Below are positions 958 to 61,440 of a stretch of DNA of 64,000 nt, piece after piece. The notes beneath the pieces were generated by a model, which ran no database searches, was not told the DNA's origin, and was given only the letters and a program-made list of their open reading frames with translations. The stretch is from an uncultured bacterium (GTDB taxonomy: Bacteria; Armatimonadota; Abditibacteriia; Abditibacteriales; Abditibacteriaceae), in the NCBI GenBank assembly GCA_963843795.1, contig CAWJLW010000010.1:186001-250000 (forward strand), written 5' to 3'. The position numbers were made by a program, and so were the translations under genes. Each line of letters starts with the position of its first letter. Position 1 is the stretch's first letter.

Positions 958-1104
958 GAAATTATCTTAACCGTTTTTTGCCGAAAATTTGTCGAAACGC
1001 GCCCTGCAAGTACTTGCAGCAAGTGTTTGTGTGCTTTGCCACATCGGTTATCTTACGTTTGCTGTATATGCGAGAACGGAATTTGCGCACGCTTCCATCA
1101 GTCA

Positions 1105-1143
1105 AAACAAAAGCCGCGACAAGAGTTGTCGCGGCCTTTGTTT
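1105..1143 (-). terminator. Rho-independent terminator after the DUF1559 gene
   Basis: Stem gccgcgacaa-gag-ttgtcgcggc with a T-rich tail on the minus strand. Confidence 0.7.
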
Positions 1144-1198
1144 CATGTTGCTCAGTCTCTATTGATTCAGGTGGCGGGAGCGCTTACGCCATCAAATT

Positions 1199-1957
1199 TT
1201 ATTCGTAGACAACGTTGCCGGGCACTGTGCATTCGACGCCGTTGCTGTCGTAGTCCAAGCCCCTGCAAGCGGCCCAGTTGCTGGTGGGCCCTTCGCCCTT
1301 GCGCGCCTTGACATGACCATCGGCAAACAGGTAGTTGGCGGTGTCCAAATGACGCCCGGGCGCCACGTTGCCGTTGGCCTGCGCCGGCCCTGCGCTTGTC
1401 CACACGCCCGTGCCCATGGTAGCGCCATTGGTGAGACGGCGACCATTGGTGTGAGGCGCATCTTTGAAGAACGCGATAGCTTCCAAGTTGGTCGCCGAAG
1501 GGTTGGCCGTGACCGCGCCCACACCGTCAATGAAAATCGGCGTGATAGCGGGCGTCTCAAAGGCGGCCAGAGCACGGCCCGAACTAGCGACGTTGGCATT
1601 CATGGTGTAGCCGACGGTCTTGTCGCTGGCGCTGGGACAGGCAAAAAGCTGGGTGCTTTTGATGTATGGCTGAAACGCCGTAGCCCAGTTATGCGAATAA
1701 CCGCCCGTACCGCCCGTGCTCGAATAAGGGACCACCAGTTCGTCGTAATCCTGCGTGTATTGCAGCCAACCCAGGCCGATCTGCTTCAGGTTGCTCTGGC
1801 AGGAAGACCGGCGCGCGTTTTCGCGTGCCCGCGCGAAAACCGGAAAGAGAATAGCAGCAAGGATCGCAATTATTGCGATGACCACGAGCAGCTCGATCAA
1901 GGTAAAGGCGCTCCGACGCCGTTTGCCGCCCGCGCGACCCATCAGCTCTTCCAACAT
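1199..1957 (-). CDS. Prepilin-type N-terminal cleavage/methylation, DUF1559 / H-X9-DG protein
   Basis: [46 protein letters not shown]...QDYDE and [23 protein letters not shown] before ATG 1957. Confidence 0.92.
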
Positions 1958-2143
1958 ATTATCTCCTTGAAATTCTAACGTCCTTTGTTTATAGCCCAAA
2001 CCTTTCGAATCCTAACCTCAAATTCAGAAAATTGAGGTTGAGAAGGCATCCGTTTCACTCTGAAGCCGCTTTGATTTGTCCACAATGGTGCTGCAAGAAC
2101 GGGTACAAAGACGGGTGCAAGTACTTGCAGCGCGCATTTCACT

Positions 2144-4318
2144 TCAATATTGCCACGAACGATAGTCTTCGGCTTGAAACGTTTCGATTGGCGTTTTCAA
2201 ACGCCCGAAAATCGGGTTATCGCCCGCAGTGAGCCCAGCCGAAACAGCGAATGAAGTTTGACGGCGCGCGGCGGCGCGTTGGCTTTGGTCGAGCAGCAGG
2301 CGCGCCAGTTCGACATGCGCCCACATAGAATTGTCGATGGCGATGGCGTGGCGATACATCTTTTCGGCGGCATACGCGTCGCGATACGCGTAATAAGTCA
2401 GGTCGGCCAGCGCGCACAGCGCGCCGGAATTATCGGAATCGCGCTGCAACACTTCCTGGTAATGGCGCTCGGCTTTGCGATACAAACGCATTTTGTAGTG
2501 CAACAGGCGGCCATACTCCAAGCGCGCGCTGTTATCCTCGGGTCGCGCTTTGAGATAGGCTTCAAATTCGCGCGCAGCCGCCGAAAATTGTTCGTCGTCG
2601 TAAAAGTCGCGCGCCAGATAAGCCAATCGCAAATGCGCGCCCGCGTCTTGCGGATTTTTCACCAAGGCTTTGTCATAATGCGCGGTCACGCGGTCGCGCA
2701 TGGCTTGCATTTCGCCGTTCAGGCCAGCTTCCTGCAACACCAACAAAGCATCGCTGTAAGCGACGTCCAAAGCTTCGGAATCGGCTTCGATGCGGTTGGA
2801 GACCCACAGCAATTTTTGACGGTCGGAGTGCCATTTGGGCGCAAACATTTCCATGCCCCACAGCAAAATGCGCGCATCGTGCGGCGCGAGCCTGACCGCT
2901 TTCCAAAACGCGGCATCAGCGAGATTTCTGTCGCTGCCAAAAGCCGCTGCAACCGCGACTTCGCGCCACGCTTGAGCATTGTTCGCATTCAAGCGCGTCG
3001 ATTCAAGCGCCGCGTTGCGCCAGTTGGGATAAATTGCGTGGAGATATTTCCATTCGCGGCTGTTCATCTGCGAGGCCGCGCGCCGCTGTCGCAATTCCTG
3101 CGCTTGATCGTTCAAACTCTTTGCCAGTTGCAGCCACATCAGACCGTTGCGCGGCGCACTGCGCACGGCAGTATCGAGCCATTTGCGCTCCTCTTGACGA
3201 TTGCGGAGCGCGCGGAATTGCAGCGCCGAAGCGCAGGAAACCAGAAAATTGTTCGGATATTTTTTCTGCGCCGCTTCCAGCAGCGCACCATTCTCGACGT
3301 TGTAAGCGAACTGATTGGCCTGAAGCCAGCCGATTTCGCCCAGCACCAGCGTGTTGTGTGACGCGCGTTTCAAAAGCTGCGCGACCACCTGTTTTTGCGC
3401 CTGATTGCTGCACTGCCCATCGCGCAACATCAGCAAAGCGGCCAAAGGTTCGCGCGCGGCAAGCTTTGTCAAACGCAGCGAAGTCGGCGCGTCCAACGGT
3501 TGGTCAGATGTCCATGGCACGCGGCCCAGAAATTCTAAATCTTCTGGTGTCGCGTAAATTTTTTCAATTTTTTCGTGCGCATTTGCGCCGGTTGCGCGGC
3601 CCAATCGCGCGGCCAAAACGGGTAATTGCGCCACGATTTGCGCGCGATTGCCGCTGATACTAAAAGTTTCGCCCGTGTTCGTGGACGGATGGGCGCGCCA
3701 GAGTTGATAGGTCAAAGTCGCGCGCCCATGATTTTCTTTCCACTCGCCAATCGCGACGTGCGAAGCGCCGCTTTGCGCGACAACCGGCAAATCGGCGGGC
3801 GCGAATTGCCGCGTGGCTTTCTTCAACTGGCGCCGCGCGTCATCGACTTGTCCCCATAGCGGCGTCGCAGACAGTTCGCCCTGTCCAGCGGCCCTCAAAT
3901 GCAGCCAGCGCGCACAACCCACACCAAATTTTTGCGCTTCATCGCTGATATTTTTAGCGGCGCGCGGCTCCGCGACGACCAAACCCAAACCCACAGCGCC
4001 GTTTGTGCCGACAAGTCGCGCGGCCCATTGCGCCGCTGCGTTTTGCGCTGCGGTTAAAATTTGCTTTTGCGCCAGATTATCGGGTGGCAGCGCCGGTAAA
4101 GGTGGCGGGGTGGAATTGAGAATGGGAAGCGCGAGAGTGCGGTGCGAGCCGATGGTTTGCACCGATGCAATTGGTTGTGGGAGATCAACTGGTGACCTGC
4201 GCGCACAACCGCCCAGAAGCGAAAGTACAAAAGCCCATGACAACGCGACCGAGTATCGCGCCTTCGTTTTTATCAAGATAACGATCACCTCCGCGCAATG
4301 CGCATGGTGGCGCGCCAA
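2144..4318 (-). CDS. Tetratricopeptide-repeat protein, possible lipoprotein (start uncertain)
   Basis: 724-aa ORF with hydrophobic stretch plus LLGGC, and TPR-like helices (ALVKNPQDAGAHLRLA, YLKARPEDNSARLEYG). Confidence 0.7.
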   Translation of the reverse strand: MARHHAHCAEVIVILIKTKARYSVALSWAFVLSLLGGCARRSPVDLPQPIASVQTIGSHRTLALPILNSTPPPLPALPPDNLAQKQILTAAQNAAAQWAARLVGTNGAVGLGLVVAEPRAAKNISDEAQKFGVGCARWLHLRAAGQGELSATPLWGQVDDARRQLKKATRQFAPADLPVVAQSGASHVAIGEWKENHGRATLTYQLWRAHPSTNTGETFSISGNRAQIVAQLPVLAARLGRATGANAHEKIEKIYATPEDLEFLGRVPWTSDQPLDAPTSLRLTKLAAREPLAALLMLRDGQCSNQAQKQVVAQLLKRASHNTLVLGEIGWLQANQFAYNVENGALLEAAQKKYPNNFLVSCASALQFRALRNRQEERKWLDTAVRSAPRNGLMWLQLAKSLNDQAQELRQRRAASQMNSREWKYLHAIYPNWRNAALESTRLNANNAQAWREVAVAAAFGSDRNLADAAFWKAVRLAPHDARILLWGMEMFAPKWHSDRQKLLWVSNRIEADSEALDVAYSDALLVLQEAGLNGEMQAMRDRVTAHYDKALVKNPQDAGAHLRLAYLARDFYDDEQFSAAAREFEAYLKARPEDNSARLEYGRLLHYKMRLYRKAERHYQEVLQRDSDNSGALCALADLTYYAYRDAYAAEKMYRHAIAIDNSMWAHVELARLLLDQSQRAAARRQTSFAVSAGLTAGDNPIFGRLKTPIETFQAEDYRSWQY

Positions 4319-4391
4319 AACATGGCGTGCGCAAAACTTTGTGTTACCTCAGATTGCCCCAAACTCCGATTTTTTCAACCTCAAACCGAAA

Positions 4392-4432
4392 AATCGCGTG
4401 GCAAGTACTTGCGCAGTACTTGCCACGCGATT
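4392..4432. repeat. Hairpin built from two copies of the palindrome between divergent genes
   Basis: aatcgcgtggcaagtact-tgcgc-agtacttgccacgcgatt, an 18-bp perfect stem. Confidence 0.9.
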
Positions 4433-5709: not shown

Positions 5710-6686
5710 GTCGCGCGCATAATGCGGTCGCGCACGCCTTGCCACGAACTTTCATCGGGCGGCATTTCAATCATGATTTCCTCGCAATGCGCCGCATCTA
5801 ATTCGTGCAGAGATTGGTACAAGAGGCTCGCGTAAATTGAGGCATCGCGTGGCAAAACAATGGCGCGCGTGTGGGCGAAGCCGTCGGCATTTTCTAGCAC
5901 CAGAGCGCCGATGTTGGCGAATTTTCGCTTCTGCAAGTACTTGCGGGCAGCTTCGCGGTTATCGAAACGCAAAGCGCGCGCGCGCGGCGCATAGTGGCGA
6001 TCCATCATGCCGGGCGCGGCGCGCGGCGCTTCATCGTTTTGGTGTTGTGCCTTTTCAATCGGGCCGATGATGCTTTCGATTTGCGCCTGCGAAATTGCGC
6101 CCGCGCGCAACAAAACCGGCGTTTGGCGTGATAAATCAAGAACCGTCGATTCGATGCCAATATTGGCCACGCCGCCATCGAGCAGCAAATCCAAACGCGG
6201 ACCGAGGGCGTTCCAAACGTGCGCGGCGCGCGTGGGCGAAAGTTGCATAAAACGGTTGGCGCTCGGTGCGGCGATGGGAATTTGCGCCGCTCGTAGCAAC
6301 TTTTGCGCGACCGGATGCGCGGGCACTCGCACACCGACAGTTTCCAATCCGGCACTCACAATGGCAGGGACGCACGACGCTTTGGGCAAGACCAGAGTGA
6401 GCGGGCCGGGCCAGAATTGCTCGGCAAGACGCTGCGCTTGCGCGGGCCAATCGGCAAGTACTTGCCGCGCGCTTGCGACATCGGGAAAATGCACGATAAG
6501 CGGATTATAAGCGGGACGTTCTTTGGCCGCGTAAATTTTGGCCACCGCAGTGGCGTCCAAAGCGTGCGCGCCCACTCCGTAAACGGTTTCGGTGGGAAAC
6601 GCCACCAGACCTCCCTCACACAAAATTTGTGCGGCGCGGGCGATATTGGCTTCAGTGGCGGGCACAACGATGGAATCGTGAGTCAT
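5688..6686 (-). CDS. sua5: L-threonylcarbamoyladenylate synthase (Sua5/TsaC with C-terminal Sua5 domain)
   Basis: VAFPTETVYG, KERPAYNPLIVH, AAPSANRF, GIESTVLD, PGMMDRHYAP. Confidence 0.93.
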   Translation of the reverse strand: MTHDSIVVPATEANIARAAQILCEGGLVAFPTETVYGVGAHALDATAVAKIYAAKERPAYNPLIVHFPDVASARQVLADWPAQAQRLAEQFWPGPLTLVLPKASCVPAIVSAGLETVGVRVPAHPVAQKLLRAAQIPIAAPSANRFMQLSPTRAAHVWNALGPRLDLLLDGGVANIGIESTVLDLSRQTPVLLRAGAISQAQIESIIGPIEKAQHQNDEAPRAAPGMMDRHYAPRARALRFDNREAARKYLQKRKFANIGALVLENADGFAHTRAIVLPRDASIYASLLYQSLHELDAAHCEEIMIEMPPDESSWQGVRDRIMRATQSLESP

Positions 6687-7191: not shown

Positions 7192-10100
7192 GCGTTAGGT
7201 GAGCTTTGCGCTTGAACTTCAAAATCTGAGTTTTCATCTTCTGCGCCACGCCGGCGCGCCAGCCAATTAATCGCATCGTCAAACAGCGAATACACAACGG
7301 GCACGGCTAACAAAGTCAGCAGCAACGAAAGGGTTTGACCGCCAAAAATCACCGTACCGATGGCGCGGTTGGTGCCGGAACCGGCCCCGCTCGATAAAAC
7401 CAGCGGCAGCATGCCGGCCACAAAGGCCAGTGTCGTCATCAAAATTGGGCGCAAACGGTCGCGATTGGCCTGAATGATCGCGTCGTAGCGGTTCATACCT
7501 TGAGCGCGCAGTTGATTGGAATGATCGACTTGTAAAATCGCGTTTTTCTTCACCACGCCAAACAAAACCAAAATGCCCAACAGCGAGAAGATGTTCAATG
7601 ATTGGCCGAACAGCCAAAGCGAAAGCAAGGCAAATGGCACCGTTAAAGGAAGAGACGTGAGAATGGTGAGCGGATGAATCCAGCTTTCAAATTGCGCGGC
7701 CAAAATTAAATACATGAAAACCATCGACAGGCCCAGCGCGACCAGAAACGCTTGGTTAGTGCGCTGCTGTTCCAGTGAACTGCCCGAAGCCGAAACTTCG
7801 TAATCCGGCCCCAGATTCAAATTATCGACGATTTTTTCAATCGCCGCGCCAATCGCCGCTTCGCTCGCGCCTTCTTCGACATTGGCCGAAAGCGTGATCT
7901 GGCGACGCCGATTGTAGCGCTCGATAGTGGCCGGGCCACTGGTGCGCTCAAAGCTGACCACGCGTCCCAATTCAACGGTGCGCCCACTGCCATTCGACGG
8001 CGCGGCGCTGACGGCACCGGAACTGATTTCGGGAGGCAGGAAATCGGGGTTGGTCGGCACCGTCAACTGCGCGATGCCTGCTTCGGAAGTGCGGTCGCGC
8101 TCGGGTGCGCGCAGATGAACTTCGTACTGACGTCCGTCTTCGACGTAATCCGTCACGCGATTGCCGCCCACCAGATAGCGCAGAGTGTTTGACAAAACTG
8201 CGGGATCGACGCCCAGTTCGCCTGCCATCACGCGATTGATGCGCACTTTAATTTGCGGCTGCCCCAGCTTCAATGAACTGTCGGCATCGGCCACGCCATC
8301 GACTTTTTCGATCTGCGCCACTGCGCGGTCGGCGCCTTCTTTCAAGCGATTCAGGTTCGGCCCACTGAGAATATATTGAATGCGCCCCGCACCGCCGCCA
8401 CCGATGAGACCGAACGAGTTGATCGGCGAAACGCGCACTTTGGCGTTGCCTTCACGTCCGATTTTGCCCAGAGCCTTGCGCATCTTGTCGATGACTTCGC
8501 TTTGCGAAAGTTCGCGTTTATCGACATCTTTGAGGCGCACATAAATGTTGGCTTCGTTGGAACTGCCACCACCGCCGCCATAAACGCTGCCCGCCGTGTT
8601 CAACAGCGTGTAATCGACTTCCTTGAAGTTGCGCGTCGCCTTATCAACTTTTTGCGCCAATGCGCGTGTCACTTCCAACGCGGTGCCCTGAGGCGCGCGC
8701 AACGAAACCTGTAATTGCGATTCGTCTTCTTCGGGCAAAAAGTTGAACGGCAGCACGCGCAGCCCGAAGGGAATTGTCGCCAAGGCACCGGCACATACTA
8801 AAACAACAACCCAGCGATGCGCCAGACTCCATTTCAGCATCGACACATACGCGCTATCAATCAGACCATAGAAACCACTTTGGCGCGCCGAACTCTGGTT
8901 ATGCTGCGCGGCAAGTACTTGCGGTGCGCTTTTGGTTTCCTCCAGCGGCGCCTTTGATTTTTTGCCTTTGCCCAGCCAACGCGCGGTGAGCATTGGTGTG
9001 AGCGTGAAGGAAACGAACAGCGAAACCAAAATCGCGAACGACATCGTAAGGCCAAACGAAGCCAAAAAGCGGCCCACAATGCCGTTCATAAATGCGACTG
9101 GCAAAAAGACTGCAACCAAAGAAAGCGTGGTCGCCAAAACCGCGAACCCAATTTCGCGAGTGCCTTCAATGGCCGCCTGCATCGGTGGCATTTCTTTTTC
9201 TTCGATGAAACGATAAATATTTTCCAGAACCACAATCGCATCGTCGATCACGATACCCACTGCCAATGTAAGGGCCAAAAGTGTGATAACGTTGAGCGTC
9301 AAGCCCAAAATCCACATCAGGGCGAAAGTGGCGATAAGAGACGTCGGAATGGCAATCGACGCGATGAGCGTGCTGCGCCAGTTCCACAGAAAAAACAAAA
9401 CCACCAGAGAAGCCAGCAGCGAGCCGAGCAAAAGATGTTCTTCAACCGATTCGACTGCGGCACGAATAAAATCGTCCTGTGAACGCACGATGCTGGCATT
9501 GATGCCGGGCGGCGCGGTTTCCTGCGCCTTTTCGACGCGCTGACGCACGTTTTCAATCACTTCCAAGGTATTGAAACCGCTTTGCTTGTAAATCGCCAAT
9601 TGCACTGTCGGCTTGCCGTTAAGTTCTGAAGACGAAGTTTCGACTGCCAGACCATCTTCGACGCGCGCCACATCGCCCAGCCGGATGCGCACGCCGCCGC
9701 CCGAACGCAGCAGAATATCTTCAAACGCTTTCACCGATTTGATGCGACCTTCGACGCGCAGGCTCAGAGTTTCCTTGGGCTGTTCGACCAGACCGCCCGG
9801 AATATCGTTGTTTTGCGCTTGCAGAGCGCTGATTAAATCGGGCACCGCCAAATTGTAAGAGCGCATGCGCTCGGCATCGGGCGTGATATTGATCTGGCGC
9901 TCGCGGTCGCCGCGCAGTTGAACATCGCCCACGCCACCGGCATTTTCCACCATGTTACGCAACGTCACATCGGCATATTTAGTGATCGTGCCAATGGGCT
10001 GCGTGCCCGAAACCGCAATCGACAAAACCGGAATCTGATTGGGATCGAAGCGGCGCACGCTGGGCGGATCGACGTTTTCGGGCAACTGGCCTTGGACGCG

Positions 10101-10507: not shown

Positions 10508-10546
10508 ATGCCCTGCAAATACTTGCGGCAAGTACTTGCAGGGCAT
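10508..10546. repeat. Hairpin of tandem palindrome copies (one variant)
   Basis: atgccct-gcaaatacttgc-g-gcaagtacttgc-agggcat. Confidence 0.85.
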
Positions 10547-13037: not shown

Positions 13038-13156
13038 AGGGCGCGGAACTGAAAGTTTGATGCCAAACATCTTGAGGGGCCGGCAAGTTACTCGCGGCAA
13101 GTACTTGCCGGCAATTTTCCAACGGGTTTTTCCCATCGCGGCTATACTCGCAGGCC

Positions 13157-14413: not shown

Positions 14414-14575
14414 TTTCTGGGCGCTGCAAGTACTTGCAGCCCTCTTTCGCAGTTGAGCGGCAACCGCACCGCATCCCAAACCGTCAAAACCAGACGCACG
14501 CGCCTGATGTTGCAGGCAATGGGGAAAACAATGTGGAAAACACGCGTGTAGAAGGTATTATTTTGGAGTCTACCG

Positions 14576-16020: not shown

Positions 16021-16066
16021 AAAACGGCGCTGCAAGTACTTGCGCAAGTACTTGCAGCGCCGTTTT
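16021..16066. terminator. Perfect 46-bp palindrome with two tandem GCAAGTACTTGC copies; probable terminator after ctpA
   Basis: aaaacggcgct-gcaagtacttgc-gcaagtacttgc-agcgccgtttt. Confidence 0.85.
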
Positions 16067-16599: not shown

Positions 16600-16637
16600 C
16601 AAAAAAGCCCCTGCAAGTACTTGCAGGGGCTTTTTTG
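16600..16637. terminator. Bidirectional terminator centred on the palindrome, between convergent genes
   Basis: caaaaaagcccct-gcaagtacttgc-aggggcttttttg, a perfect 38-bp palindrome with T tracts on both strands. Confidence 0.9.
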
Positions 16638-18584: not shown

Positions 18585-18636
18585 GCAAAAAGCGCGCAGC
18601 AAGTACTTGCACCCGTACTTGCTGCGCGCTTTTTGC
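18585..18636 (-). terminator. Palindrome-derived terminator hairpin
   Basis: gcaaaaagcgcgcagcaagtac-ttgcaccc-gtacttgctgcgcgctttttgc. Confidence 0.8.
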
Positions 18637-20024: not shown

Positions 20025-21326
20025 TCAATTGTCAAAACGACCGAGTTGCACCACGGTTTCCACATGAGCAGTTTGGGGAAATAAATCCAGCGGCACGACT
20101 TCTTCCACGCGGTAATCCGCGGCCAAATCCGCCACATCGCGCGCCAACGTCGCCGCATCGCACGAAACGTAAACAATTGTTTTGGGCTTCAAACGCTTCA
20201 GTTCGGCGATGCAAGTACTTGCACCGGCGCGTGGCGGGTCGAGAACTACGAGATCGGGCGCCAGAGAAATTTTCTTCAATGCGCGCGCCGCATCACCACT
20301 GACGAACTCCGCCCCCAATTTGTTGCGTCGCGCGTTCAATTTCGCATCACGAATCGCTTGGTGCCCGCTTTCGATTCCCAAGACGCGCGCGCCGCTGCGC
20401 GCCATATCCAAAGCGAACAGGCCCACGCCGCAAAATAAATCCAGCGCGCGCTGCCCGCTTTGCACCCGTGCCAAGCGCCGCACAGTTGCCAAAAGCAGCG
20501 GCGTAATGGAGGAATTGACTTGAAAAAATCCGCCGCCTGTCACGCGCAGTTCTAAACCATCGACAGTTTCTTGGAGCCAATCGCGCCCATCCAAAACGCG
20601 CGCGGACGATTTTTCGCTGTGGCGCAAGACGCCAACACATTGCGGCATTTGAGCACGAAAACTTTTGGCCCAAGCCGTTTCGTCGTTCCAATTCGCAGCC
20701 GAAGTTTGCAACACCAACAGCGAATTTTCCGAACTATCAGCGCGCATCACCGCGCGTTTTACCAAACCAGGCGGTAATGCGGGCAACCTGGCACGCACAA
20801 GTTCCAGAACGCGATTATTGAGCGTGTTTTGAATCGGACAAGTTTCTACCGCCACCAGATCGTGCGAATTGCGCGCGTAAAAACCGATTTGTGGGCGGCA
20901 AGTACTTGCCGCCGAACTTTCAATGGTTTCGACCACGAAATCGGCCTTGTTGCGATAATTGTAGCTCGCGGGCGATGGCTGGCACGGCGCGGTAATTTCT
21001 TCTAAAATTTCGCGTTTGATGTGGCCGATGCGATTCAAGGCGTCGATGACGAAGCCGCGCTTAATTTCCAGCTGCGCTTCATAATTGAGATGCTGCCACT
21101 GACAGCCGCCGCAGCGTCCGAAAATTGGACAGTTGGGCGAGGTGCGCAGCGGGGCAAGTACTTGCAAGTCGAGCAAATGGCCGCGCGCGAAAGTTTTGCG
21201 TTCGTCGTCGATGGCGACGCGGGCCACATCGCCTGGCGCGGCGAACGGCACAAAAGTCACGCGCTCGTTTTCGTCACGCCCGACGGCATCGCCGCCGACT
21301 GCCATGCCGTGAAAAGAAACCTGCAT
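20025..21326 (-). CDS. rlmD: 23S rRNA (uracil-C5)-methyltransferase RlmD/TrmA family
   Basis: TRAM domain, CPIFGRCGGCQWQH, FFQVN, DLFCGVG, LDPPRAG, YVSCD, DLFPQTAHVE. Confidence 0.92.
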   Translation of the reverse strand: MQVSFHGMAVGGDAVGRDENERVTFVPFAAPGDVARVAIDDERKTFARGHLLDLQVLAPLRTSPNCPIFGRCGGCQWQHLNYEAQLEIKRGFVIDALNRIGHIKREILEEITAPCQPSPASYNYRNKADFVVETIESSAASTCRPQIGFYARNSHDLVAVETCPIQNTLNNRVLELVRARLPALPPGLVKRAVMRADSSENSLLVLQTSAANWNDETAWAKSFRAQMPQCVGVLRHSEKSSARVLDGRDWLQETVDGLELRVTGGGFFQVNSSITPLLLATVRRLARVQSGQRALDLFCGVGLFALDMARSGARVLGIESGHQAIRDAKLNARRNKLGAEFVSGDAARALKKISLAPDLVVLDPPRAGASTCIAELKRLKPKTIVYVSCDAATLARDVADLAADYRVEEVVPLDLFPQTAHVETVVQLGRFDN

Positions 21327-21453: not shown

Positions 21454-22602
21454 TCAGCGAATCAAACCCTGCTCGCGCGCCCATTGGTCATAAGCCGAGG
21501 GCGCGATTTCGCTGGGCTTAATTTCACTGCGCCCGCCCCAAAATACGTTGGTATAGCTGATTGGCACGCCGCATTCTTCGAGATGTTTGTCGATGGCATC
21601 TTTGTGGCGCAGCAGCAGATTTTTGTCGGTTCCGTGCGCGACGCCCATGATGTTGACGTTGTTGAATTCCGGCCCACCTTCGCGCCAATACGCGTGCGTC
21701 ATAATGTGAAAACGCCCGACCTGACGGCCCGCGTAAATTTCGCGGCCTTCCGGAACGGCCCAGTGGAATAGCGCATTAAAACGCGTCACGCGCTCGCCGC
21801 TTTGCAAAGTTTTCGCGTGCTCCAAAAAGGTCGCGAAACGCCCGATAACGCTGCGTTCGTCCAAACTGCGCGCAACTTGAAGAAAAGTTTCGTAATCGAC
21901 GCCGGCTTCTTCGGCACGCGCGCGCCAGATTTCGGGCACCAGTTCTTCGGGTTCGAATTCGCGTTTCAACGCCGTCAAAACTTGCCATTCGAGCGCGTCC
22001 AAAGTCGCGACATTCACTTCCAACGCCGTCGCCAGTGCTGCAGTTTTATCACCCGGTGTGAGCACGCGGCGGCGCACATGGCCTACGCCCAACGCGAACA
22101 AGCGCTTGGCGGGCATGATACGAAAATCGGTCGCGCCGGTTTGCTCACACAAAAATTTGCAGTGCGCTTCCATCGAATAGGGCGCGGGCACTTTAAGCGT
22201 TGTCCACAAACGATAGCGCGCGCCTTCAATCGGCGCATCGGTGGTGCGAATCACGACGTGGCCGGAAAACGGGTCTTGCTGGAACATGTAATCGAATGCC
22301 GATTGCAGCTTGTCTTCCGGCACACACCACGCGATCAAAGCGCCCGGCGCGAGGTTGGTGGCGAGAAGCGTTTGGCGAATACGACGAATTGTGCCCGCGA
22401 CTAGCATCGCGCGCAAGCGTTCGATCACGACGTCCAATTCCACGCCGCTCTGGCGCGCAATTTCGCCCAGAGGGTCGACGGTGAAACCGGCGATCTTGTC
22501 TTCGGAAACCGCCAAAATGCGCGCGTTAATCGCGTCATCGGTGCGAATCGAAATTTCGTCCGAGCTTTCTAAAGTGTTTTCGGGTGTGCAAGTACTTGCC
22601 AT
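21454..22602 (-). CDS. Lrp/AsnC-like two-domain protein (siroheme decarboxylase NirDL/AhbAB-like)
   Basis: Probable start MASTCTPE at 22602; EIARQSGVELDVVIERLRAM HTH-like segment repeated in second half; THAYWR...NIMGVAHG. Confidence 0.7.
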   Translation of the reverse strand: MASTCTPENTLESSDEISIRTDDAINARILAVSEDKIAGFTVDPLGEIARQSGVELDVVIERLRAMLVAGTIRRIRQTLLATNLAPGALIAWCVPEDKLQSAFDYMFQQDPFSGHVVIRTTDAPIEGARYRLWTTLKVPAPYSMEAHCKFLCEQTGATDFRIMPAKRLFALGVGHVRRRVLTPGDKTAALATALEVNVATLDALEWQVLTALKREFEPEELVPEIWRARAEEAGVDYETFLQVARSLDERSVIGRFATFLEHAKTLQSGERVTRFNALFHWAVPEGREIYAGRQVGRFHIMTHAYWREGGPEFNNVNIMGVAHGTDKNLLLRHKDAIDKHLEECGVPISYTNVFWGGRSEIKPSEIAPSAYDQWAREQGLIR

Positions 22603-23876: not shown

Positions 23877-23993
23877 GGGGGAAAGTATGACAGATGCCGC
23901 AAGTTCGTTTCGTGCGCCGAAAATGAGAAACTACTCCGCAAGTACTTGCCACAGCTTTTGCTTTATTCTTTTCCACTGTATTCTTTTGCAACT

Positions 23994-27940: not shown

Positions 27941-27974
27941 GAAAGCGTGCTGCAAGTACTTGCAGCACGCTTTC
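27941..27974. terminator. Palindrome-centred hairpin
   Basis: gaaagcgtgct-gcaagtacttgc-agcacgctttc. Confidence 0.8.
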
Positions 27975-28947: not shown

Positions 28948-29041
28948 AGGTTCTCCCTGCAAGTACTTGCAGCACAGCGCAACGCATTTTATCAGACCTT
29001 TGCAATGATTTCTCGTTCGCGATTGATATACTCGCGCCGCT

Positions 29042-35196: not shown

Positions 35197-35323
35197 GGCG
35201 CGCAATAAAGCGCGCAGCAAGTAGCGGCAAGTACTTGCTGCGCGCGCTCGTCACGGTTTCACGACGAGAATGTATGCCGTCAAACTGATTTTCTCCATTT
35301 TCCGACATTTTCCGATTTTTATA

Positions 35324-36040: not shown

Positions 36041-36072
36041 AAATCCCGCTGCAAGTACTTGCAGCGGGATTT
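36041..36072. terminator. Bidirectional palindrome-centred terminator between convergent genes
   Basis: aaatcccgct-gcaagtacttgc-agcgggattt. Confidence 0.85.
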
Positions 36073-39157: not shown

Positions 39158-40245
39158 GCCGTTTCCTCCGCCGACAACGCAATTTCTCGCGCCGCTGGCA
39201 ATTCTTTGGTTTCTGGCAATTCCTTGGTTTCGGACAATTCTTTGGTTTCGGGTATCTCAACGTTCGGGGCTTCTTCCACATCCGACGGCTCCGACGCGGA
39301 AACTTCCGGCGTGGAAATTTCTGCCGTAGAAATTTCTTGCTTGGTCAGCTCGCGCGCGTGCAGAATGGCAACGGTGATATTGTCGTAGCCTCCGCGCGCT
39401 TTGGCTTGTTCGACCAAGGTTTCGCAGGCGGCTTGTGGCTCGTGGGCAAGTACTTGCGCGGCGATAAAATCGTCGTCGAGCAGATCGCACAAACCATCCG
39501 AGCACAATAAAAACCGATCATCATCGCGCACGATCATCGCTTCGCTCCAAACCTCGACTTCAACAGTGGGATGCAAACCCAAAGCGCGCGTGATCAGATT
39601 TTTTTCCGGATGATGGCGTGCCTGCTGGGTTGTGAGCGCGCCCTGTCGCACCATTTCCATGACCGCCGAATGATCTTGCGACAATTGATAAATCGCGCCG
39701 CCGCGCACCAAATACAAACGGCTATCTCCGACGTGCGCGGCAAACGCGTGGTGTCCGCGCACCAGAAGCGTCGTGCAGGTCGTGCCCATGCGATGTTGAT
39801 TTTTTTCCGCGCTGGCCGCACTATGAATCGCCGCATTGGCATTTTCCAACGCCGTGCGCAAAAGCTCGGTGGGCGCGTTCAAATATGGGGGCGCTGCCGC
39901 GTAATACTCGCGACACACGGTTTCGACTGCCAGCGCGCTGGCGATTTCGCCACCCGCGTGACCTCCCATGCCATCGGCCACGATTACGAAAACTCCGCGC
40001 TGCGCCCGCTCTGACGCGCTTTCGGGCACAATGGCACGCGCGCTATCTTCGTTGCCTTCGCGCACGCAACCCACATCGGTGTGCAAGCCGATCACGCACT
40101 CGAAAATTTCCTTGTCGGGGAAAATATCATATGGCGAAGAATCGCTTTGAGAAGAATCGAAAGATGGCGCTTCAACGGGCAATGCCTCGAATGCCTCGAA
40201 TGCCTCGTGAGTTTTGACAGCGCGCTTTTTCCACCAATCGAACAT
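39154..40245 (-). CDS. PP2C-family Ser/Thr phosphatase
   Basis: DVGCVREGNED, VADGMGGH, HVGDSRLY, LCSDGL, GYDNIT. Confidence 0.94.
   Translation of the reverse strand: MFDWWKKRAVKTHEAFEAFEALPVEAPSFDSSQSDSSPYDIFPDKEIFECVIGLHTDVGCVREGNEDSARAIVPESASERAQRGVFVIVADGMGGHAGGEIASALAVETVCREYYAAAPPYLNAPTELLRTALENANAAIHSAASAEKNQHRMGTTCTTLLVRGHHAFAAHVGDSRLYLVRGGAIYQLSQDHSAVMEMVRQGALTTQQARHHPEKNLITRALGLHPTVEVEVWSEAMIVRDDDRFLLCSDGLCDLLDDDFIAAQVLAHEPQAACETLVEQAKARGGYDNITVAILHARELTKQEISTAEISTPEVSASEPSDVEEAPNVEIPETKELSETKELPETKELPAAREIALSAEETA
39195..39252. repeat. In-frame 18-bp tandem repeat x3 (PETKEL)
   Basis: ctggcaattc(t/c)ttggttt-type units. Confidence 0.85.
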
Positions 40246-40379
40246 AATGAGCCTTTGTCAAATCGTAGATTTAGGTCATCGAACTCACTTCGCCGTTTTC
40301 AATCCAACGAAATTATCCCAGCAAGTACTTGCGGCAAGTATTTGCAAGCGGGAGCCCTTGGCAAGCTACTGACGGGAAG

Positions 40380-42525: not shown

Positions 42526-44977
42526 ACCTATGGTTCTGCTACTGTCAGTTTTGTCGGCGTCGGTCGCTTCGGCATTATCCATTGATTTCTCATTGGGTGA
42601 TCGCGAGAAGCGTCGTTCTTCATTGTCTTCGTAGCGTCCGTAATAGCCGCTGTAGTAATAGCCACCGTAATCATTGCTGTGCGAAGTTTTGGAATCAATT
42701 TTGTTCAAAGCGATGCCCAGCACCTCGGCGCGCGCCTGAGCTAATAATTCGAACGAGCGCGCAATCGAAGATTTGGCCACGCGTCCCAATTGCATCACAT
42801 ACAAAACGCCATCGACCTTCGACGCAAGTACTTGCGCGTCTGAGGTGGCCAGCAAAGGCGGTGAATCAAAGATAATCACATCGGTTTGTGTCTTCAATTC
42901 TTCCATCACAGCTTCCATCGAAGGCGAATTCAACAATTCGACCGGGTTGGGCGGCAAAATACCAGCCGCCAGAAAGCGCAGGTTATAAATGCCAGTCTCG
43001 TGCAGACAATCGCTGAGCTTCGCCTGTCCAACCAAGATATTGGTCAAGCCCGGCTGAACCGGCACATCAAAAACATCATGTTGACGCGGACGGTGCAAGT
43101 CGGCATCGATCAACACCACTCGCTTGCCATCCAGCGCCATTGCGGCGGCCAAGTTGGAAGCCGTATAACTTTTGCCTTCTTGGGGCACCGAAGAAGTGAC
43201 CAAAATCGTCGCGTGCGGTTTATCCAGAAGCGTGAACTGCACATTCGAACGCAAAACGCGGAATTTTTCCAGCAAATTGCGTTCGTGACCCTGGCGATAG
43301 CCACCAGCCAGAGGATCGCTGACTAGACGGATTGTCATCTTTATCCAATTCGGTAATTAGCACATCGAAGGGCAAGCCTTCATCGTTCGAAACCGGAGCC
43401 GAACCATTGGCACTTAGACCATTGACTCCCGAACCATTAGGAGAACTGCCATTGGCCACCGGCAAGGCGCCTTTTTTCAAAGCTTTGGCCTGAGCATCGC
43501 GCAAGATAACCGGCAAAGATTTGTGCTCGGCAGACATGAGCGGAAAATGTCCCAGAATCGGCACGCCCAGCATCCGACGCACTTCTTCTTCATCGCGGAT
43601 ATGATCGTCCAGCGATTCCTGCAACATCGCCGCACCACACGCCAGCAACAAGCCCAGAGCAATCGACAGAATAATATTGCGCTGCACGTTGGGCGAAATT
43701 TTCACCGCAGGACTGGCGTCTTCAATGACGTTGATAGGATCATTGGCCGCTTCCATCGCTTTTTTGCCGTAGTGACAGATCGTTGACATTTTGCCCCATC
43801 GATAAGACTGTGGCGGCACTGCTTTCGACATCCCGCTGCAATTGAGCTTGTTCGCGCTCAATCGGATTATAGCGACCCAAATCTTTAGCCAAATTATCAG
43901 CACGAACTGATAAAGCCTGCGCATTGGCTTGAGCGGCTCGTAGCGGAGCTTGCGCTTCGGCAATTTTGCCATCGTATTCGACAATAGCCGGATTGGGAAC
44001 CCGAGTTTCGGTTGTGACATCGCGCGGTGTGCGATTCAAGCGCGCTTGCAAATCGGTGATCTGGCGGTCGATCTTACGAATTTCATCGTCAGTGGGCTTG
44101 TACAAAAACAACGAGCTTTGACGCTGCGATTTAAGGTCCGCAATTTTTTGACGAAGCTCTTGAAGCTCTGCCGTGTTGGTCGTCGTGGTGGGCGTGGTAA
44201 TCGTTGCCGGCAATTGCTGACGCGTAGCCACTAACGATTCGAGTTGAGCGCTCAGCCTGTCCACATCGGCCTCAGCACTGCTGACTCCGGCCCGCGCTGC
44301 TGGCAGCGGCTTCGAGATCGCCTGCGCGCTGTGCCGTAGGATCAACAATGTTGGCCTTCTGTTTGAAATTGAGCAGGGCCCGCTCACTGGTTTTTAAACG
44401 GGCGTTCTCTTCTGTCAAACGTTTTTGAGCAAAAGCTAAAGCCGAAGAAACTTCGCGCATGCGATCAGCTCGCAAATCGTTTAGATAAACCCTCGGCACC
44501 GCTTTGAGATACTCGAAAGCTGCGGTTGCGGATTGCGAAACCGTGCTCAACTCAATGACATTGGTGTCTGCCACACGGCGGACTTCCAGAAAAACACTTC
44601 CCGGCTGCACATTAGCATCCTTGGCAGCTTTGGCGGCGATATCGGATGCCCGCAAAATTTCGACTTGCGTTTCCACACGCTGACCACTCGAGGGCAGTAG
44701 CAAGTCTGAAAACGGGTTGGTCGTGTTATTGAGCGCCATCACCGTCACTTTGTTTTCAACCAGGATGCGTGACGTCGAGCGATAAGTTGGCTTGGCCATA
44801 AAGGTCAGCACAGCTCCTAAAGCAACGACAACGATAAACGCTTGAATCGCAATCGCTTTGCGGCGCTTGAGAATCACCAAAAAATCGCGCAAGTGAGGGG
44901 GCTTGTTCGGTGGCGGCCTCATCAGGCATGGCATAAGTCGGGCTATGCGATTCGGAAATATTGGCTAACTGATTCAT
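42520..44977 (-). CDS. wzc: Polysaccharide co-polymerase / tyrosine autokinase (Wzc-like; split across frames)
   Basis: LRDFLVILKRRK + TM (Wzz), coiled coil, second TM, TSSVPQEGKS, IDADLHRP, DSPPLL, C-terminal YGGYYYSGYY cluster. Confidence 0.88.
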
Positions 44978-50054: not shown

Positions 50055-50090
50055 CAAAAGCGCCCTGCAAGTACTTGCAGGGCGCTTTTG
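50055..50090. terminator. Palindrome-centred terminator
   Basis: caaaagcgccct-gcaagtacttgc-agggcgcttttg. Confidence 0.85.
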
Positions 50091-54366: not shown

Positions 54367-54437
54367 CACCATCGCACGGGTAAAGAGTGCTGTGCAAGTA
54401 CTTGCAGAGAGTGTTCAAGTTCGTGACAGGAAAACTT

Positions 54438-60172: not shown

Positions 60173-60250
60173 ATTCTAGATACTGACGTGCTCCCCGAAA
60201 GAGTCCTCGATTATAAAATAGAGAGCAAGGGCCAAATAAGGAGCAGGAAG

Positions 60251-60517
60251 ATGAAAGGGAGCCGTTTCAGCGAAGAACAGATCATCGGGATCATCAAGCA
60301 GCAAGAAGGTGGGCGCACCACCGCCGAGGTGTGCCGCGAAGCGGGCATCAGCCAGGCGACTTTTTACGCCTGGAAAGCCAAGTTCGGTGGTATGAGCGTC
60401 AGCGATGCCCAACGCCTCCGCCAACTCGAAGCCGAGAACGCCAAGCTGCGGCGCGTGGTCGCCGATCTGACTATGGACAACGTGGCGTTGAAGGATGTGG
60501 TCTCAAAAAAGTGGTGA
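60251..60517 (+). CDS. IS3 transposase OrfA
   Basis: [16 protein letters not shown]...[20 protein letters not shown]...[10 protein letters not shown]...KKW; ends at AAAAAAG. Confidence 0.93.
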
Positions 60518-61370
60518 CGCCACCACCCGCAAGGGGTACCGGCTAAAAAGCAGGTGGCGGGCTACTTACAAGAAACAGCTATGGCTTTGTCCCAGCGACG
60601 GGCGGCGACTCTGGTCAAAACCGCGCCGCGGGTGTTGCGTTACAAAAGCAAGCGAAGTGACGATGCGCCTATCCGAACTCGGCTGCGCGAGTTGGCGAGT
60701 GAGCGTCCGCGCTGGGGCTATCGGCGTTTGCACGTATTGTTGCGGCGCGAAGACGTGGCTAATCAACCGCAAGAAGACGCATCGGCTTTACCGCGAGGAG
60801 AATCTGCACCTGCGCCCCAAAAAGCGCAAGCGCCTCACCAGCAGTGCGCGTGTAATGCCCGGAGCACCCACAGGTATAAACCAAACGTGGACGATGGATT
60901 TTATCCATGACAATCTGGCCAATGGGCGCACCTTTCGGGCTTTGAATGTGATGGATGCCTGGAGCCGCGAAGCTTTGGCCATCGAAGCTGATACCAGTTT
61001 GAATGGCGCACGCGTGGTGCGAGTGTTGGACGAGTTGATTGCGCAACGGGGCAAGTCTGGGTTGATTCAGGTCGATAACGGCGCGGAGTTCCGGGGCATT
61101 GCTCTCGACCAGTGGGCATATCGCCATCAAGTGAAGTTGCACTTTATCGAACCGGGCAAACCGACTCAAAACGGCAAGATCGAATCGTTCAATGGCAGGT
61201 TGCGCGATGAATGTCTCAATCAGGAATGGTTTGCTTCACTCTTCCACGCCCGCTGTGTGTTGGCGGCGTGGAAAGAAGATTACAACACCGTGCGGCCACA
61301 CAGCGCACTCGACTACCAAACGCCCATGCAATGGGCGCAATCTCAAACCGAGGTCTCTACTTTTGAGTGA
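60505..61370 (+). pseudogene. IS3 transposase OrfB, disrupted by a 16-nt insertion and a +1 indel
   Basis: [54 protein letters not shown] spread over three frames. Confidence 0.8.
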
Positions 61371-61392
61371 GGACTACTTGGGGAGCACGTCA

Positions 61393-61440
61393 ATACGATA
61401 AAAGCCCGCTGCAAGTACTTGCAACGGGCTTTTGTCGTAT
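61393..61440. terminator. Palindrome-centred terminator between convergent genes
   Basis: atacga-taaaagcccgct-gcaagtacttgc-aacgggcttttg-tcgtat. Confidence 0.8.

Follow-up and report, generated by a model that had tools for sequence, protein, structure and literature searches.

A highly iterated 12-bp palindrome, a possible self-DNA tag in an uncultured bacterium of the family Abditibacteriaceae

Results

A 12-bp palindrome recurs across the window

The window is the whole stretch of DNA that was analysed, 64,000 nucleotides from an uncultured bacterium (assembly GCA_963843795.1, contig CAWJLW010000010.1, positions 186,001 to 250,000). Its genes include those for a Sua5/TsaC-like protein, an AcrB-family transporter and a ParA/MinD-like protein. 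Between 1006 and 61422 it contains 31 exact copies of the palindrome GCAAGTACTTGC, with 0 expected (Table 1). None of 100 dinucleotide-preserving shuffles of the window contained one. An earlier note on this DNA had given the same count and a chance expectation far below one copy, and both were borne out. Allowing up to two mismatches yields 36 sites (2.68 expected), only five more.

Coding context was taken from crude longest-ORF calls, and domains from Pfam matches. These calls place 16 copies between ORFs and 15 inside them. Two of the latter, at 13097 and 50067, are doubtful as coding, so the earlier estimate of about 20 intergenic and 11 coding copies is roughly right. The flanks were said to differ at each site. 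This is true of their sequence, but a symmetric flank preference exists (A-run, cgcgCT / AGcgcg, T-run). No transposase accompanies the word, as the note had observed; the IS3-family ORFs at 60188-61370 are unrelated to it. All five hairpins of at least 14 pairs at positions 1-40000 contain the word.

Table 1. Copies of the 12-bp word in the window, with their context ([12], the word itself; pairs, base pairs by which the palindrome continues)
Position	Match	Context	Further detail
1006..1017	exact	intergenic, between ORF ending 957 and ORF 1199-1999(-)	+2 pairs
2117..2128	exact	intergenic, between ORFs 1199-1999(-) and 2144-4318(-)	
4401..4412	exact	paired with degenerate second copy	terminator-like 18-pair hairpin 4432-4392
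5933..5944	exact	Sua5/TsaC-like ORF 5688-6701(-)	K-Y-L, frame 1, residue 253; Sua5_C 202-329
6454..6465	exact	same ORF, 5688-6701(-)	Q-V-L-A, frame 2, residue 79; Sua5_yciO_yrdC 25-200
8911..8922	exact	AcrB-family transporter ORF 7188-10505(-)	Q-V-L-A, residue 528; ACR_tran 25-1074
10515..10526	one mismatch, GCAAATACTTGC	adjoins exact copy 10528-10539	
10528..10539	exact	intergenic	18-pair hairpin 10546-10508 together with 10515..10526
13097..13108	exact	codon 10 of Fpg-like longest ORF	Pfam match from residue 33, so probably upstream of the true start
14426..14437	exact	intergenic, 13 nt after ORF 13157-14413(+)	
16032..16055	two exact, head to tail	hairpin tip after S41 peptidase gene, A-run and T-run	aaaacggcgct[12][12]agcgccgtttt; 52-nt RNA fold -33 kcal/mol
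16613..16624	exact	tip of bidirectional terminator-like hairpin, between convergent ORFs 16163-16588(+) and 16670-18523(-)	+13 pairs, AAAAAA/TTTTTT flanks
18599..18610	exact	hairpin with degenerate second copy	aaaaagcgcgca[12]acccgtacttgctgcgcgcttttt; fold -31.2 kcal/mol
20211..20222	exact	tRNA(U5)-methyltransferase-like ORF 20025-21401(-)	A-S-T-C, residue 394; Pfam match 272-453
20898..20909	exact	same ORF, 20025-21401(-)	A-S-T-C, residue 165
21154..21165	exact	same ORF, 20025-21401(-)	Q-V-L-A, residue 79
22588..22599	exact	ORF 21454-22863(-)	A-S-T-C, residue 89
23938..23949	exact	putative ORF 23868-24446(+)	K-Y-L, residue 24; ORF without Pfam match, so coding status uncertain
24411..24422	exact	near end of putative ORF 23868-24446(+)	A-S-T-C, residue 182/192
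27952..27963	exact	tip of terminator-like hairpin 27941-27974, 15 pairs	+11 pairs
28959..28970	exact	ankyrin-repeat ORF 28012-29265(-)	K-Y-L, residue 99
31870..31881	exact	tip of terminator-like hairpin 31892-31859, 15 pairs	+11 pairs, AAAA/TTTT flanks
35227..35238	exact	14-pair hairpin 35245-35210 with degenerate second copy	
35818..35829	exact	HAD-hydrolase gene	Q-V-L-A, residue 183; within HAD_2 38-215
36051..36062	exact	hairpin tip between convergent genes	+10 pairs, AAAA before
39446..39457	exact	PP2C phosphatase gene	Q-V-L-A, residue 263; within PP2C 65-289
40321..40345	exact, one base, then one mismatch, GCAAGTATTTGC	intergenic	
42824..42835	exact	ParA/MinD-like gene	Q-V-L-A, residue 168; within ParA 43-219
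50067..50078	exact	terminator-like hairpin tip inside last 32 codons of ORF 47734-50163(+)	+12 pairs, AAAA/TTTT flanks; fold -30.5 kcal/mol
54394..54405	exact	intergenic	
61411..61422	exact	hairpin tip after IS3-family transposase ORF	aaaagcccgct[12]aacgggctttt; fold -31.4 kcal/mol

The word is abundant and exact throughout the genome

The genome (4,299,948 bp; G000 below) contains 2,567 exact copies of GCAAGTACTTGC, on 11 of 11 contigs. The genome-wide k-mer count proposed in the earlier note was run, and the top of the 12-mer list is taken up by the word and extensions that overlap it. Base composition predicts 0.25 exact copies. Sites with one mismatch number 506 (9 expected), those with two 371 (150 expected), and those with three 1,534, which is background (1,504 expected). 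The 5:1 ratio of exact to one-off copies suggests active drive. Summed over symmetric positions, the one-off variants number 110, 40, 62, 154, 60 and 80.

The copies are evenly spaced. In 426 bins of 10 kb their mean number is 6.0 and the variance 5.0, and short gaps are depleted, the fraction of at most 500 nt being 0.174 versus 0.264 under an exponential distribution. The densest grouping is five copies in 1.5 kb, and no dense cluster surrounds any gene. In four soil runs, which may represent the source sample, contigs derived from short reads match parts of the window with zero differences and cover motif sites; soil-run contig record 21 spans 15972-16165 with one difference. The word is therefore not an artefact of the assembly record.

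Copies in genes, between genes and in acquired DNA

Copies in coding sequence align ungapped to ordinary codons of orthologues, and 20 of 31 aligned coding sites have no gap within two residues. The same alignments show that copies sometimes change protein residues. The peptide QVLA occurs 712 times in G000 (39 expected) and the reversed AVLQ 28 times. QVLA is spelt CAAGTACTTGCN in 641 of the 712, versus a share of 0.005 predicted from codon usage. ASTC occurs 320 times, versus 6 expected. The codons used include the rare GTA (8.4% of Val codons) and CTT (10% of Leu codons). Among 768 sites deep in coding sequence, frames 0, 1 and 2 are found 142, 172 and 454 times. These deep sites have A at a frequency of 0.40 at position -10 and T at 0.40 at the mirror position, and their mean palindrome extension is only 1.16, a flank preference without pairing. 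As judged from these alignments and counts, GCAAGTACTTGC is a genome-wide tag spread by point substitution.

Many intergenic copies cap terminator-like hairpins whose stem sequence differs from site to site. In about a third of all intergenic copies (419 of 1,202) site-specific sequence continues the palindrome by at least four pairs. Of convergent spacers 54% contain the word, as do 46% of tandem and 29% of divergent ones. A/T preferences in the flanks repeat at intervals of about 10 bp.

The four largest motif-free stretches, 25-33 kb long, are all acquired DNA with zero copies. They comprise a Type I R-M/integrase island, a T4SS conjugative element, an eCIS cluster and a transposase island. 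Three metagenomic mobile-element contigs with replication modules carry the same dialect of the word, with 37 copies in 22.6 kb, or 2.7 times the chromosomal density. Most of these copies are not hairpins.

Relatives use dialects of the word

A survey of the phylum, also proposed in the earlier note, found AAGTACTT abundant only in G000 (2,965 copies) and G001 (2,725), a species of the same genus. Each of the other 399 genomes in the phylum sample has at most 110. The dialect of G001 is CAAAGTACTTTG, and that of a metagenomic relative at about 66% amino-acid identity is gCAAGTACTTGc. In the sister genus g6, AGTACT is raised in four of six genomes (2,813-4,733 versus 236-1,045 for controls), whose words are aTCGAGTACTCGAt or cGAGTACTCg. 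AGTACT, which the earlier note had singled out as the core, proved to be the invariant centre of all these dialects. The fifth g6 genome, G006, has a non-palindromic 10-mer, GTACGGTCGA, in 1,473 + 1,508 copies (about 2,980), often as inverted pairs. An 80-kb sample of it contains 26 such pairs, at 2-nt spacing and forming terminator-like hairpins, and 14 single copies.

Some sites are shared between species, each in the local spelling. This was found for five of 12 sites with the metagenomic relative and three of 19 with G001, versus about 0.2 expected in either case. At one such position QVLA (cAA GTA CTT Gcx) corresponds to KVLS (AAA GTA CTT TCx).

Discussion

The earlier note had proposed a genome signature like HIP1 or DUS, and our analysis supports this. 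Three findings that would speak against it were each tested, and none applies. The enrichment extends far beyond the window. Nor does the word belong to a longer REP/MITE mobilised by a cognate transposase, as stems vary and coding copies are substituted in place. Literature searches found no published description.

We tentatively favor, at a little under an even chance, the explanation that GCAAGTACTTGC is a self-DNA tag similar to DUS or USS, amplified by biased uptake and recombination. Amplification by biased gene conversion, as for DUS in Neisseriaceae and USS in Pasteurellaceae, serves as the model. A protein would read the word, either as a symmetric reader or as two copies of an asymmetric one, and the half-sites GCAAGT, CAAAGT and TCGAGT would suit both. 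The reader may belong to the type IV pilus/competence apparatus. Fragments bearing the word would be taken up preferentially and then replace homologous DNA, leading to thousands of copies held exact; the natural-transformation machinery would in this way amplify the word through biased gene conversion. Its frequent positions, at hairpin tips and in tolerant codon strings (L-Q-V-L-A), would be those of least cost. Frame bias is reported for DUS/USS, and coding copies of GCAAGTACTTGC are likewise biased. About half of DUS/USS are reported to lie in predicted terminators, and intergenic copies here are often at terminator-like hairpin tips. However, proven uptake sequences are asymmetric, whereas GCAAGTACTTGC is a perfect palindrome.

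The machinery that the earlier note suggested looking for is in part present. G000 has ComEC, a ComEA-type HHH_3 protein and DprA, in addition to 8 secretin matches and 7 PilB/PilT-type ATPase matches. These genes do not discriminate, since they are also found in motif-less relatives: G005 has ComEC, DprA, secretins and ATPases, and HHH_3 is present in 25 of 27 family genomes. We know of no report of natural competence in this lineage, and to our knowledge such tags have been proven only in relatives of Neisseria and Haemophilus. If the explanation is true, this would be an undescribed tag of the DUS/USS type outside those groups, in an uncultured soil bacterium.

Repair of the HIP1 type is a fairly unlikely alternative. 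It would involve two enzymes, a methylase acting on the AGTACT core and a mismatch nuclease through which near-matches become the word. Like HIP1, GCAAGTACTTGC is palindromic, is found in coding and non-coding DNA and spreads by substitution. Its invariant AGTACT inside varying outer letters resembles HIP1, whose inner CGATCG/GATC is reported to be read by methylases. Family relatives are nearly void of AGTACT (G005 has 1 site versus 654 for the control), which shows that the family has enzymes in circulation that read this hexamer. However, the avoiding genomes are short of many 6-bp palindromes, not AGTACT alone, and one-off variants do not cluster in the outer letters. No C5 methylase (PF00145) is found in G000 or G001, and no Dam-type methylase in the five genomes searched (G000, G001, G002, G005, G006). 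Vsr (PF03852) is found in none of six AGTACT-rich genomes and in 4 of 27 family genomes overall. The sole N6_N4 methylase of G000 has orthologues in G006 (65% identity), which is without an AGTACT word, and in G005 (58% identity), with its one AGTACT site in 6 Mb, so it is unlikely to be AGTACT-specific. N6_Mtase matches are present in G000 and absent from G006, and no lineage-specific methylase was found. Among the mechanisms listed in the earlier note, the methylation/VSP variant has thus lost support. Selection on a binding site is likewise unlikely. The site would be read either as DNA, by a dimeric protein that organises the nucleoid or is linked to termination, or as the RNA hairpin tip GCAAGUACUUGC, by a termination or stability factor. 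The even spacing, the 10-bp recurrence in the flanks and the position of many copies on terminator-like hairpins, about half of all copies being intergenic, are consistent with this, and the conservation of positions between species is explained just as well by functional selection. By analogy, Xu et al. argued that HIP1 is under selection and has a nucleoid role. On the other hand, at least 768 copies are found far inside ORFs, with no hairpin extension, and force rare codons and residue changes, which would be expensive for a signal acting in termination or in RNA. The word is also present in divergent spacers, where promoters lie. Selection would have to keep 12 letters exact at each of 2,567 sites, where the ratio of exact to one-off copies points to drive, and the acquired regions function with zero copies.

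It is highly improbable that the word is a REP/MITE, a miniature mobile repeat with a RAYT-type transposase to copy it, or that an Ssn-type single-strand nuclease uses it as its target repeat. The word forms hairpins in spacers, G000 has one Y1_Tnp match, and the family has REP-like elements, such as one of about 55 bp with conserved 16-nt arms in G016. However, only 12-16 letters are common to the copies, the Y1_Tnp match covers just part of the model (positions 40-119, 31.8 bits) and is located among short broken ORFs, and G006, despite the abundance of its own word, has no such match. The absence of motif clusters around any gene also argues against it. The GIY-YIG matches of G000 are a 672-aa ORF and a 450-aa ORF only, with no small single-domain SsnA-like gene; neither an intact RAYT nor an Ssn-like nuclease was found among its Y1_Tnp and GIY-YIG domain matches. 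Together with the ungapped coding alignments and the site-specific stems, this led us to reject GCAAGTACTTGC as a mobile element. Quite improbable, too, is a Chi-like or protective ‘self’ mark, recognised in DNA end processing or sparing DNA from a defence nuclease. Known Chi sites are 5-8 nt long, asymmetric and skewed in orientation, whereas GCAAGTACTTGC is a palindrome, and the side of the A-run, its sole asymmetric feature, has no replication-linked bias. Four acquired regions, one of them an integrated conjugative element, persist without copies, and the partner nuclease would be purely hypothetical. A precedent exists in the Chi-like component of the HIP1 effect described by Kamoku and Nielsen. 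The raised density on the mobile-element contigs is not predicted by biased uptake and would fit a protective mark, as expected if invaders mimic ‘self’.

The word is abundant, sharply defined and evenly spread

The earlier note had counted 31 copies of the 12-bp palindrome GCAAGTACTTGC (the word), built on an AGTACT core, in the window. All 31 were found at identical coordinates, and none appeared in 100 dinucleotide-preserving shuffles. Allowing one or two mismatches added only five sites in the window. The note had also proposed the word as a candidate genome signature, and the enrichment does extend beyond the window: the source genome G000 (4,299,948 bp, with the window at C10:186001-250000) contains 2,567 exact copies, distributed over every one of its 11 contigs. 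The word and its overlapping extensions top all k-mer lists of G000 from 8 to 16 letters. Only 0.25 exact copies are expected from base composition. Sites with one, two and three mismatches number 506, 371 and 1,534 in G000, compared to 9, 150 and 1,504 expected on the same basis. The exact-match peak is therefore very sharp. Copies are spaced more evenly than chance, with a mean of 6.0 and a variance of 5.0 in 10-kb bins. The densest 1.5 kb of the genome holds five copies at most, and none are clustered around any gene.

The word is also present in an independent assembly, metagenome contig L106, which is 97.7% identical to G000 and carries two copies. In addition, parts of the window, motif sites included, are matched perfectly by low-depth short contigs from four soil runs, which are possibly the source sample itself. 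Apparent joints between motif sites in the soil runs have sides of just 20-23 letters and were rejected as alignment effects caused by the repeat.

Copies cap hairpins in spacers and lie deep within genes

Placement was assessed from crude gene calls that took the longest ORFs (3,555, covering 90% of G000). By these calls, 1,202 copies are intergenic, 140 lie across an ORF edge and 1,225 are within ORFs, 768 of these 150 nt or more past the start of the ORF. The deep coding copies favor one reading frame, with 142, 172 and 454 in frames 0, 1 and 2. In the window, at least eight copies are located within Pfam-matched parts of ordinary genes, with matches to Sua5 (twice), AcrB, a tRNA U5-methyltransferase-like protein, a HAD hydrolase, PP2C and a ParA-like protein.

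The typical intergenic copy forms the tip of a hairpin. Its complementary stem is specific to the site, and an A-run and a T-run are located outside it (one example is given in the table). The palindrome is prolonged by at least four pairs in 419 of the 1,202 intergenic copies and by at least nine pairs in 296. Among the spacers of G000, the word is found in 54% of the convergent ones, 46% of the tandem ones and 29% of the divergent ones. A simple terminator scan, which predicts terminators from sequence, identified five hairpins of at least 14 pairs in window positions 1-40000, and all five contain the word; the scan total was no higher than in shuffles.

The flank consensus is symmetric and consists of an A-run (-11 to -8), cgcgCT, the word, AGcgcg and a T-run. 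A weaker form of it persists around unpaired deep coding copies (A = 0.40 at -10, mean extension 1.16). In frame 2, the A-run favors one side relative to transcription (79 vs 24), which codons can account for. No replication-linked bias of its side was found along the 3.6-Mb contig.

Copies are made by substitution in place

Proteins containing the word in G000 were aligned to orthologous DNA of two relatives, giving 31 sites. Twenty of the aligned coding sites are gap-free within two residues, and the partner codons are ordinary and similar (for example, ALQVLAGQ vs ALQELRGQ and WVQVLAST vs WVQPLSTD). The peptide QVLA occurs 712 times in G000 compared to 39 expected from residue frequencies, and the reversed peptide AVLQ occurs 28 times. 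QVLA is spelt CAAGTACTTGCN in 641 of the 712 cases (expected share 0.005), a spelling that includes the rare codons GTA (8.4%) and CTT (10%). Similarly, the peptide ASTC occurs 320 times compared to six expected. In G000, the DNA word thus takes precedence over codon choice and alters the proteome. One tetrapeptide is 18-fold over-represented, which illustrates the power of a DNA-level signal over a proteome. The gap-free alignments and the codon override together indicate that the word spreads by point substitution and not by insertion of an element.

Relatives carry different dialects around a common core

The exact G000 12-mer is found zero to three times per genome in 40 relatives. These include the sole congeneric species, G001, which shares about 60% amino-acid identity with G000 over 70 orthologues. 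In G001, a different word, CAAAGTACTTTG, reaches a density similar to that of the word in G000. The two genomes share the 8-mer AAGTACTT, with 2,965 copies in G000 and 2,725 in G001; each of 399 other sampled genomes of the phylum has at most 110. A metagenomic relative uses gCAAGTACTTGc. It has a G+C content of 0.65 and about 66% amino-acid identity to G000, with which it is syntenic. The dialect spellings include GCAAGTACTTGC, CAAAGTACTTTG and ATCGAGTACTCGAT, with outer letters GCA, CAA and TCG.

The AGTACT hexamer was counted across 27 genomes of the family together with a reversed control. It is strongly raised in both genomes of this genus (g1) and in four of six genomes of the genus g6 (2,813-4,733 vs controls of 236-1,045). 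In these g6 genomes, the word is aTCGAGTACTCGAt (G009, G015 and G019) or cGAGTACTCg (G012). Five AGTACT-centered spellings are thus found over G000, G001, the metagenomic relative and the four g6 genomes. In the two remaining g6 genomes, AGTACT stays under the control (166 and 175 vs 587 and 745), as it does in the genera g3 and g4 (285 and 215 vs 1,320 and 1,068). The g2 and g5 genomes are nearly devoid of it (for example, 1 site in 6 Mb vs 654; G005, G008, G011, G022, G262 and others). A mechanistic tie between this avoidance and the enrichment in g1 and g6 was considered and rejected. Many other 6-bp palindromes are missing as well from 80-kb samples of the avoiding genomes, and therefore no specific link to AGTACT was read. 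The samples (L204-L223) point to a very strong and broad palindrome avoidance in the g2 and g5 genomes.

One g6 genome with no AGTACT excess, G006, carries an asymmetric 10-mer, GTACGGTCGA. It is present in 1,473 + 1,508 copies, and at most 11 are found in any other genome of the family. An 80-kb sample of G006 (L212-L215) contains 26 inverted pairs 2 nt apart and 14 single copies. The pairs fold into terminator-like hairpins, the outer stems of which differ from site to site. No Y1_Tnp match was found in G006. No words at 0.2 per kb or more were seen in 80-kb samples of G002, G003, G004, G005, G007, G010, G014 and G017. A different, REP-like element of roughly 55 bp is present in G016 (L250-L253), with conserved inverted arms GACACCAGCCACGTCC and a variable inner hairpin. 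Its arm core occurs 42 times in 80 kb, in places in tandem arrays.

Some positions are shared between dialects. At orthologous positions, the relative's own spelling of the word was found at 5 of 12 sites for the metagenomic relative and at 3 of 19 sites for G001, compared to about 0.2 expected in each. Residue changes at shared positions track the dialect, for example QVLA vs KVLS. Among 12 syntenic spacers of G000 and the metagenomic relative, four have the word in both, five in one only and three in neither, and the stems are unrelated. For G000 and G001, the short contigs (234 kb) offered just 10 conserved gene pairs, which did not suffice for a comparison of syntenic spacers. The family, part of a largely uncultured phylum, constitutes a natural comparative series, with at least four palindromic spellings, an asymmetric inverted-pair word in one genome and word-less sister genomes. 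This contrast makes the reader and the amplifier of such words directly testable.

Outside these lineages, the 16-mer CTGCAAGTACTTGCAG gave at least 36 matches in a public genome collection that did not include G000, all single and in unrelated taxa among the matches listed. In a viral collection, it gave six single matches, which is the chance level.

Acquired DNA lacks the word and some mobile elements are rich in it

The four longest word-free stretches of G000 measure 25-33 kb, some with deviant G+C, and are described in the table. The right-hand third of the window holds just 3 of the 31 copies; its G+C is lower, and it contains genes for polysaccharide export as well as an IS3-family element. 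Three metagenome contigs (L119, L134 and L148) carry 37 copies in 22.6 kb (1.6 per kb), with G000 spelling and flanks. Most of these copies are not hairpins. The contigs encode a D5 primase-helicase, DnaB, a primase, VRR-NUC and PIN proteins and an excisionase-like HTH protein, a gene set of phage or plasmid-type replication, and show near-zero similarity to G000 proteins. The contigs probably derive from phages, plasmids or integrative elements hosted by the lineage of G000. In these genomes, the word can serve to tell acquired DNA apart from resident DNA and ties mobile-element contigs to their host lineage.

Likeness to uptake sequences and HIP1

The word resembles the DNA uptake sequences of Neisseriaceae and Pasteurellaceae (DUS/USS), whose signature was drawn from the available parts of PMC3630211 and 10.1101/2025.10.24.684340 and from the title of PMC7371117. 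Shared features are thousands of exact copies at roughly one per 1-2 kb, copies made by substitution in spacers and genes with a reading-frame bias, and acquired islands without the word. By the available parts of the same sources, they also include a large share (about half) in predicted terminator hairpins and species dialects around a common core, CTG in DUS and AGTACT here. The asymmetric 10-mer of G006, in inverted pairs, is a further likeness to DUS. Unlike DUS and USS words, which are asymmetric, the G000 word is a perfect palindrome, so one copy caps a hairpin and no inverted pair is needed. Its dialects shift between congeners with about 60% amino-acid identity. It also belongs to a different lineage, probably of Armatimonadota, in which competence is not known. 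This phylum was assigned through one protein and the taxa of its nearest Atlas clusters.

The cyanobacterial HIP1 (GCGATCGC) is similar in being a hyper-abundant palindrome of genes and spacers, with an inner core plus outer letters and, in the portions of the literature available, sites conserved between genomes. HIP1 has 8 letters compared to 12 here. It is one word throughout its phylum, whereas the word here has species-level dialects and AAGTACTT is high in just 2 of 401 genomes. The word is also strongly placed at terminator-like tips. As far as the available text goes, recent work connects HIP1 with transformation and suggests that it is an uptake sequence, which would make it a third case of sequence-specific uptake; an older study favored selection and a function in the nucleoid.

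The set of DUS/USS-type features and the closeness to HIP1 led us to favor the reading of the word as a self-DNA tag. The word would mark self DNA, and biased uptake followed by recombination would amplify its copies. We consider the chance that this reading is correct to be slightly below even. More tentatively still, the word may represent a third independent family of uptake sequences, outside the Proteobacteria and the first that is palindromic, in uncultured soil bacteria (probably Armatimonadota), whose invariant AGTACT core and species-level dialects would limit gene exchange among congeners. To our knowledge, sequence-specific DNA uptake is proven in two proteobacterial families only. 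A third family of this kind would, if real, imply that natural transformation and the discrimination of self DNA occur in a phylum never shown to be competent. The earlier note knew of no description of the word. Likewise, no account was found in the literature, in a search that did not extend to subscription journals or to some 1.7 million articles of PMC. Literature on uptake sequences of Armatimonadetes and on palindromes of Fimbriimonas gave no description within the same coverage.

Candidate partner genes and rival explanations

REP/RAYT elements and the NTS/SRM repeats of Ssn are also short, hairpin-forming and spacer-rich repeats, often near gene ends. In the available descriptions, they are 20-40-nt extragenic units with conserved stems and a repeat-flanked cognate gene. 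Here only the 12-16-nt tip is common, hundreds of copies are intragenic and a cognate gene was not found. A REP/RAYT origin was rejected on the stems that vary by site and the 768 deep-ORF copies. No intact RAYT was found in G000, where the sole Y1_Tnp match is partial and lies amid broken ORFs. A target repeat of Ssn was rejected as well, on the lack of a small GIY-YIG gene and of a word cluster around any gene in G000. GIY-YIG matches in G000 are confined to ORFs of 672 and 450 aa; the search used the Pfam model, which is broader than cd10448 and could miss a very divergent member.

The weight not given to a self-DNA tag is shared by three alternatives. A methylation-linked, HIP-like drive could maintain the word, and the DmtA and DmtC methylases are known for HIP1. 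In G000, no cognate methylase was found, and none of the C5 or Dam type. The one N6_N4 methylase of G000 is shared as an orthologue across the family and is also present in G005, which has one AGTACT site, and N6_Mtase matches do not track the presence of the word. No Vsr match was found among the six AGTACT-rich genomes. RE_ScaI (PF09569) has no match in five genomes and none in 14 control genomes either, which makes this result uninformative. Part of the weight falls to a selected protein- or RNA-binding site. The word could also be a Chi-like protective mark, which is favored by the motif-rich mobile elements L119, L134 and L148. Chi sites are asymmetric words with an orientation skew relative to replication. 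The word differs from them in being palindromic, and the side of its flanking A-run has no replication-linked bias.

For a self-DNA tag, G000 encodes the competence proteins ComEC, HHH_3 (ComEA-type), DprA, secretins and PilB/T ATPases. These are equally present in relatives without the motif, so their presence does not discriminate. More generally, the earlier note had suggested a search for co-occurring genes, and none of the candidate families (methylases, Vsr, GIY-YIG, Y1_Tnp, ComEA) has a presence that follows the word. The defining property of DUS and USS is functional, namely preferred uptake or transformation of DNA with the word and its binding by a receptor. ComP is the receptor for DUS. 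For USS, the available text gives ComN/PpdA as predicted. In the window, a DUF1559 prepilin-like protein belongs to one of the pilin-like families where a DNA receptor could be sought.

Other features of the window and the genome

The remaining features with coordinates are collected in the table.

Features of the window and of G000 (C, contig; positions without a contig are those of the window)
Position	Strand	Feature	Remarks
1199-1999	-	Protein with prepilin-type N-terminal methylation motif and DUF1559
16613		Copy of the word in hairpin context	aaaaaagcccct, word, aggggctttttt
25447-27165	-	GTP cyclohydrolase I gene, 571-aa ORF	LAGLIDADG-type domain splits the enzyme match in two; the insertion is probably an intein
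21454-23803; 61449-63175; C6:748574-752209		Split genes in adjacent ORFs: peptidase M20, three-piece carbamoyltransferase, Type IIG-like methylase/nuclease	Either pseudogenes or assembly indel errors
		Word-free stretch: Type I restriction/integrase island
		Word-free stretch: conjugative element	VirB4 and coupling protein (T4SS type)
C3:1-32022		Word-free stretch: contractile-injection-system cluster (loci L258, L259)	eCIS looks complete: sheath, Pvc16_N, AAA ATPase, eCIS core, gp25, baseplate J; 0 word copies
		Word-free stretch: island with four transposases

The same 12-mer is also found in unrelated metagenome contigs of lower G+C, as two or three direct copies exactly 22 bp apart from start to start. 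The loci are L105, L111-L113, L115, L118, L121, L123, L127-L129, L133, L135, L137, L138, L152, L153, L156 and L157. The copies are located in spacers between different housekeeping genes. Neighboring genes for a TonB receptor, DUF4923 and GH127 suggest that these contigs are from Bacteroidota. In this arrangement, the copies resemble a phased operator or an iteron whose dimeric binding protein would read this 12-mer. In L125 and L117 (G+C about 0.43), the 12-mer recurs every 37 bp in tandem arrays, and L122 contains a dense patch of degenerate copies.
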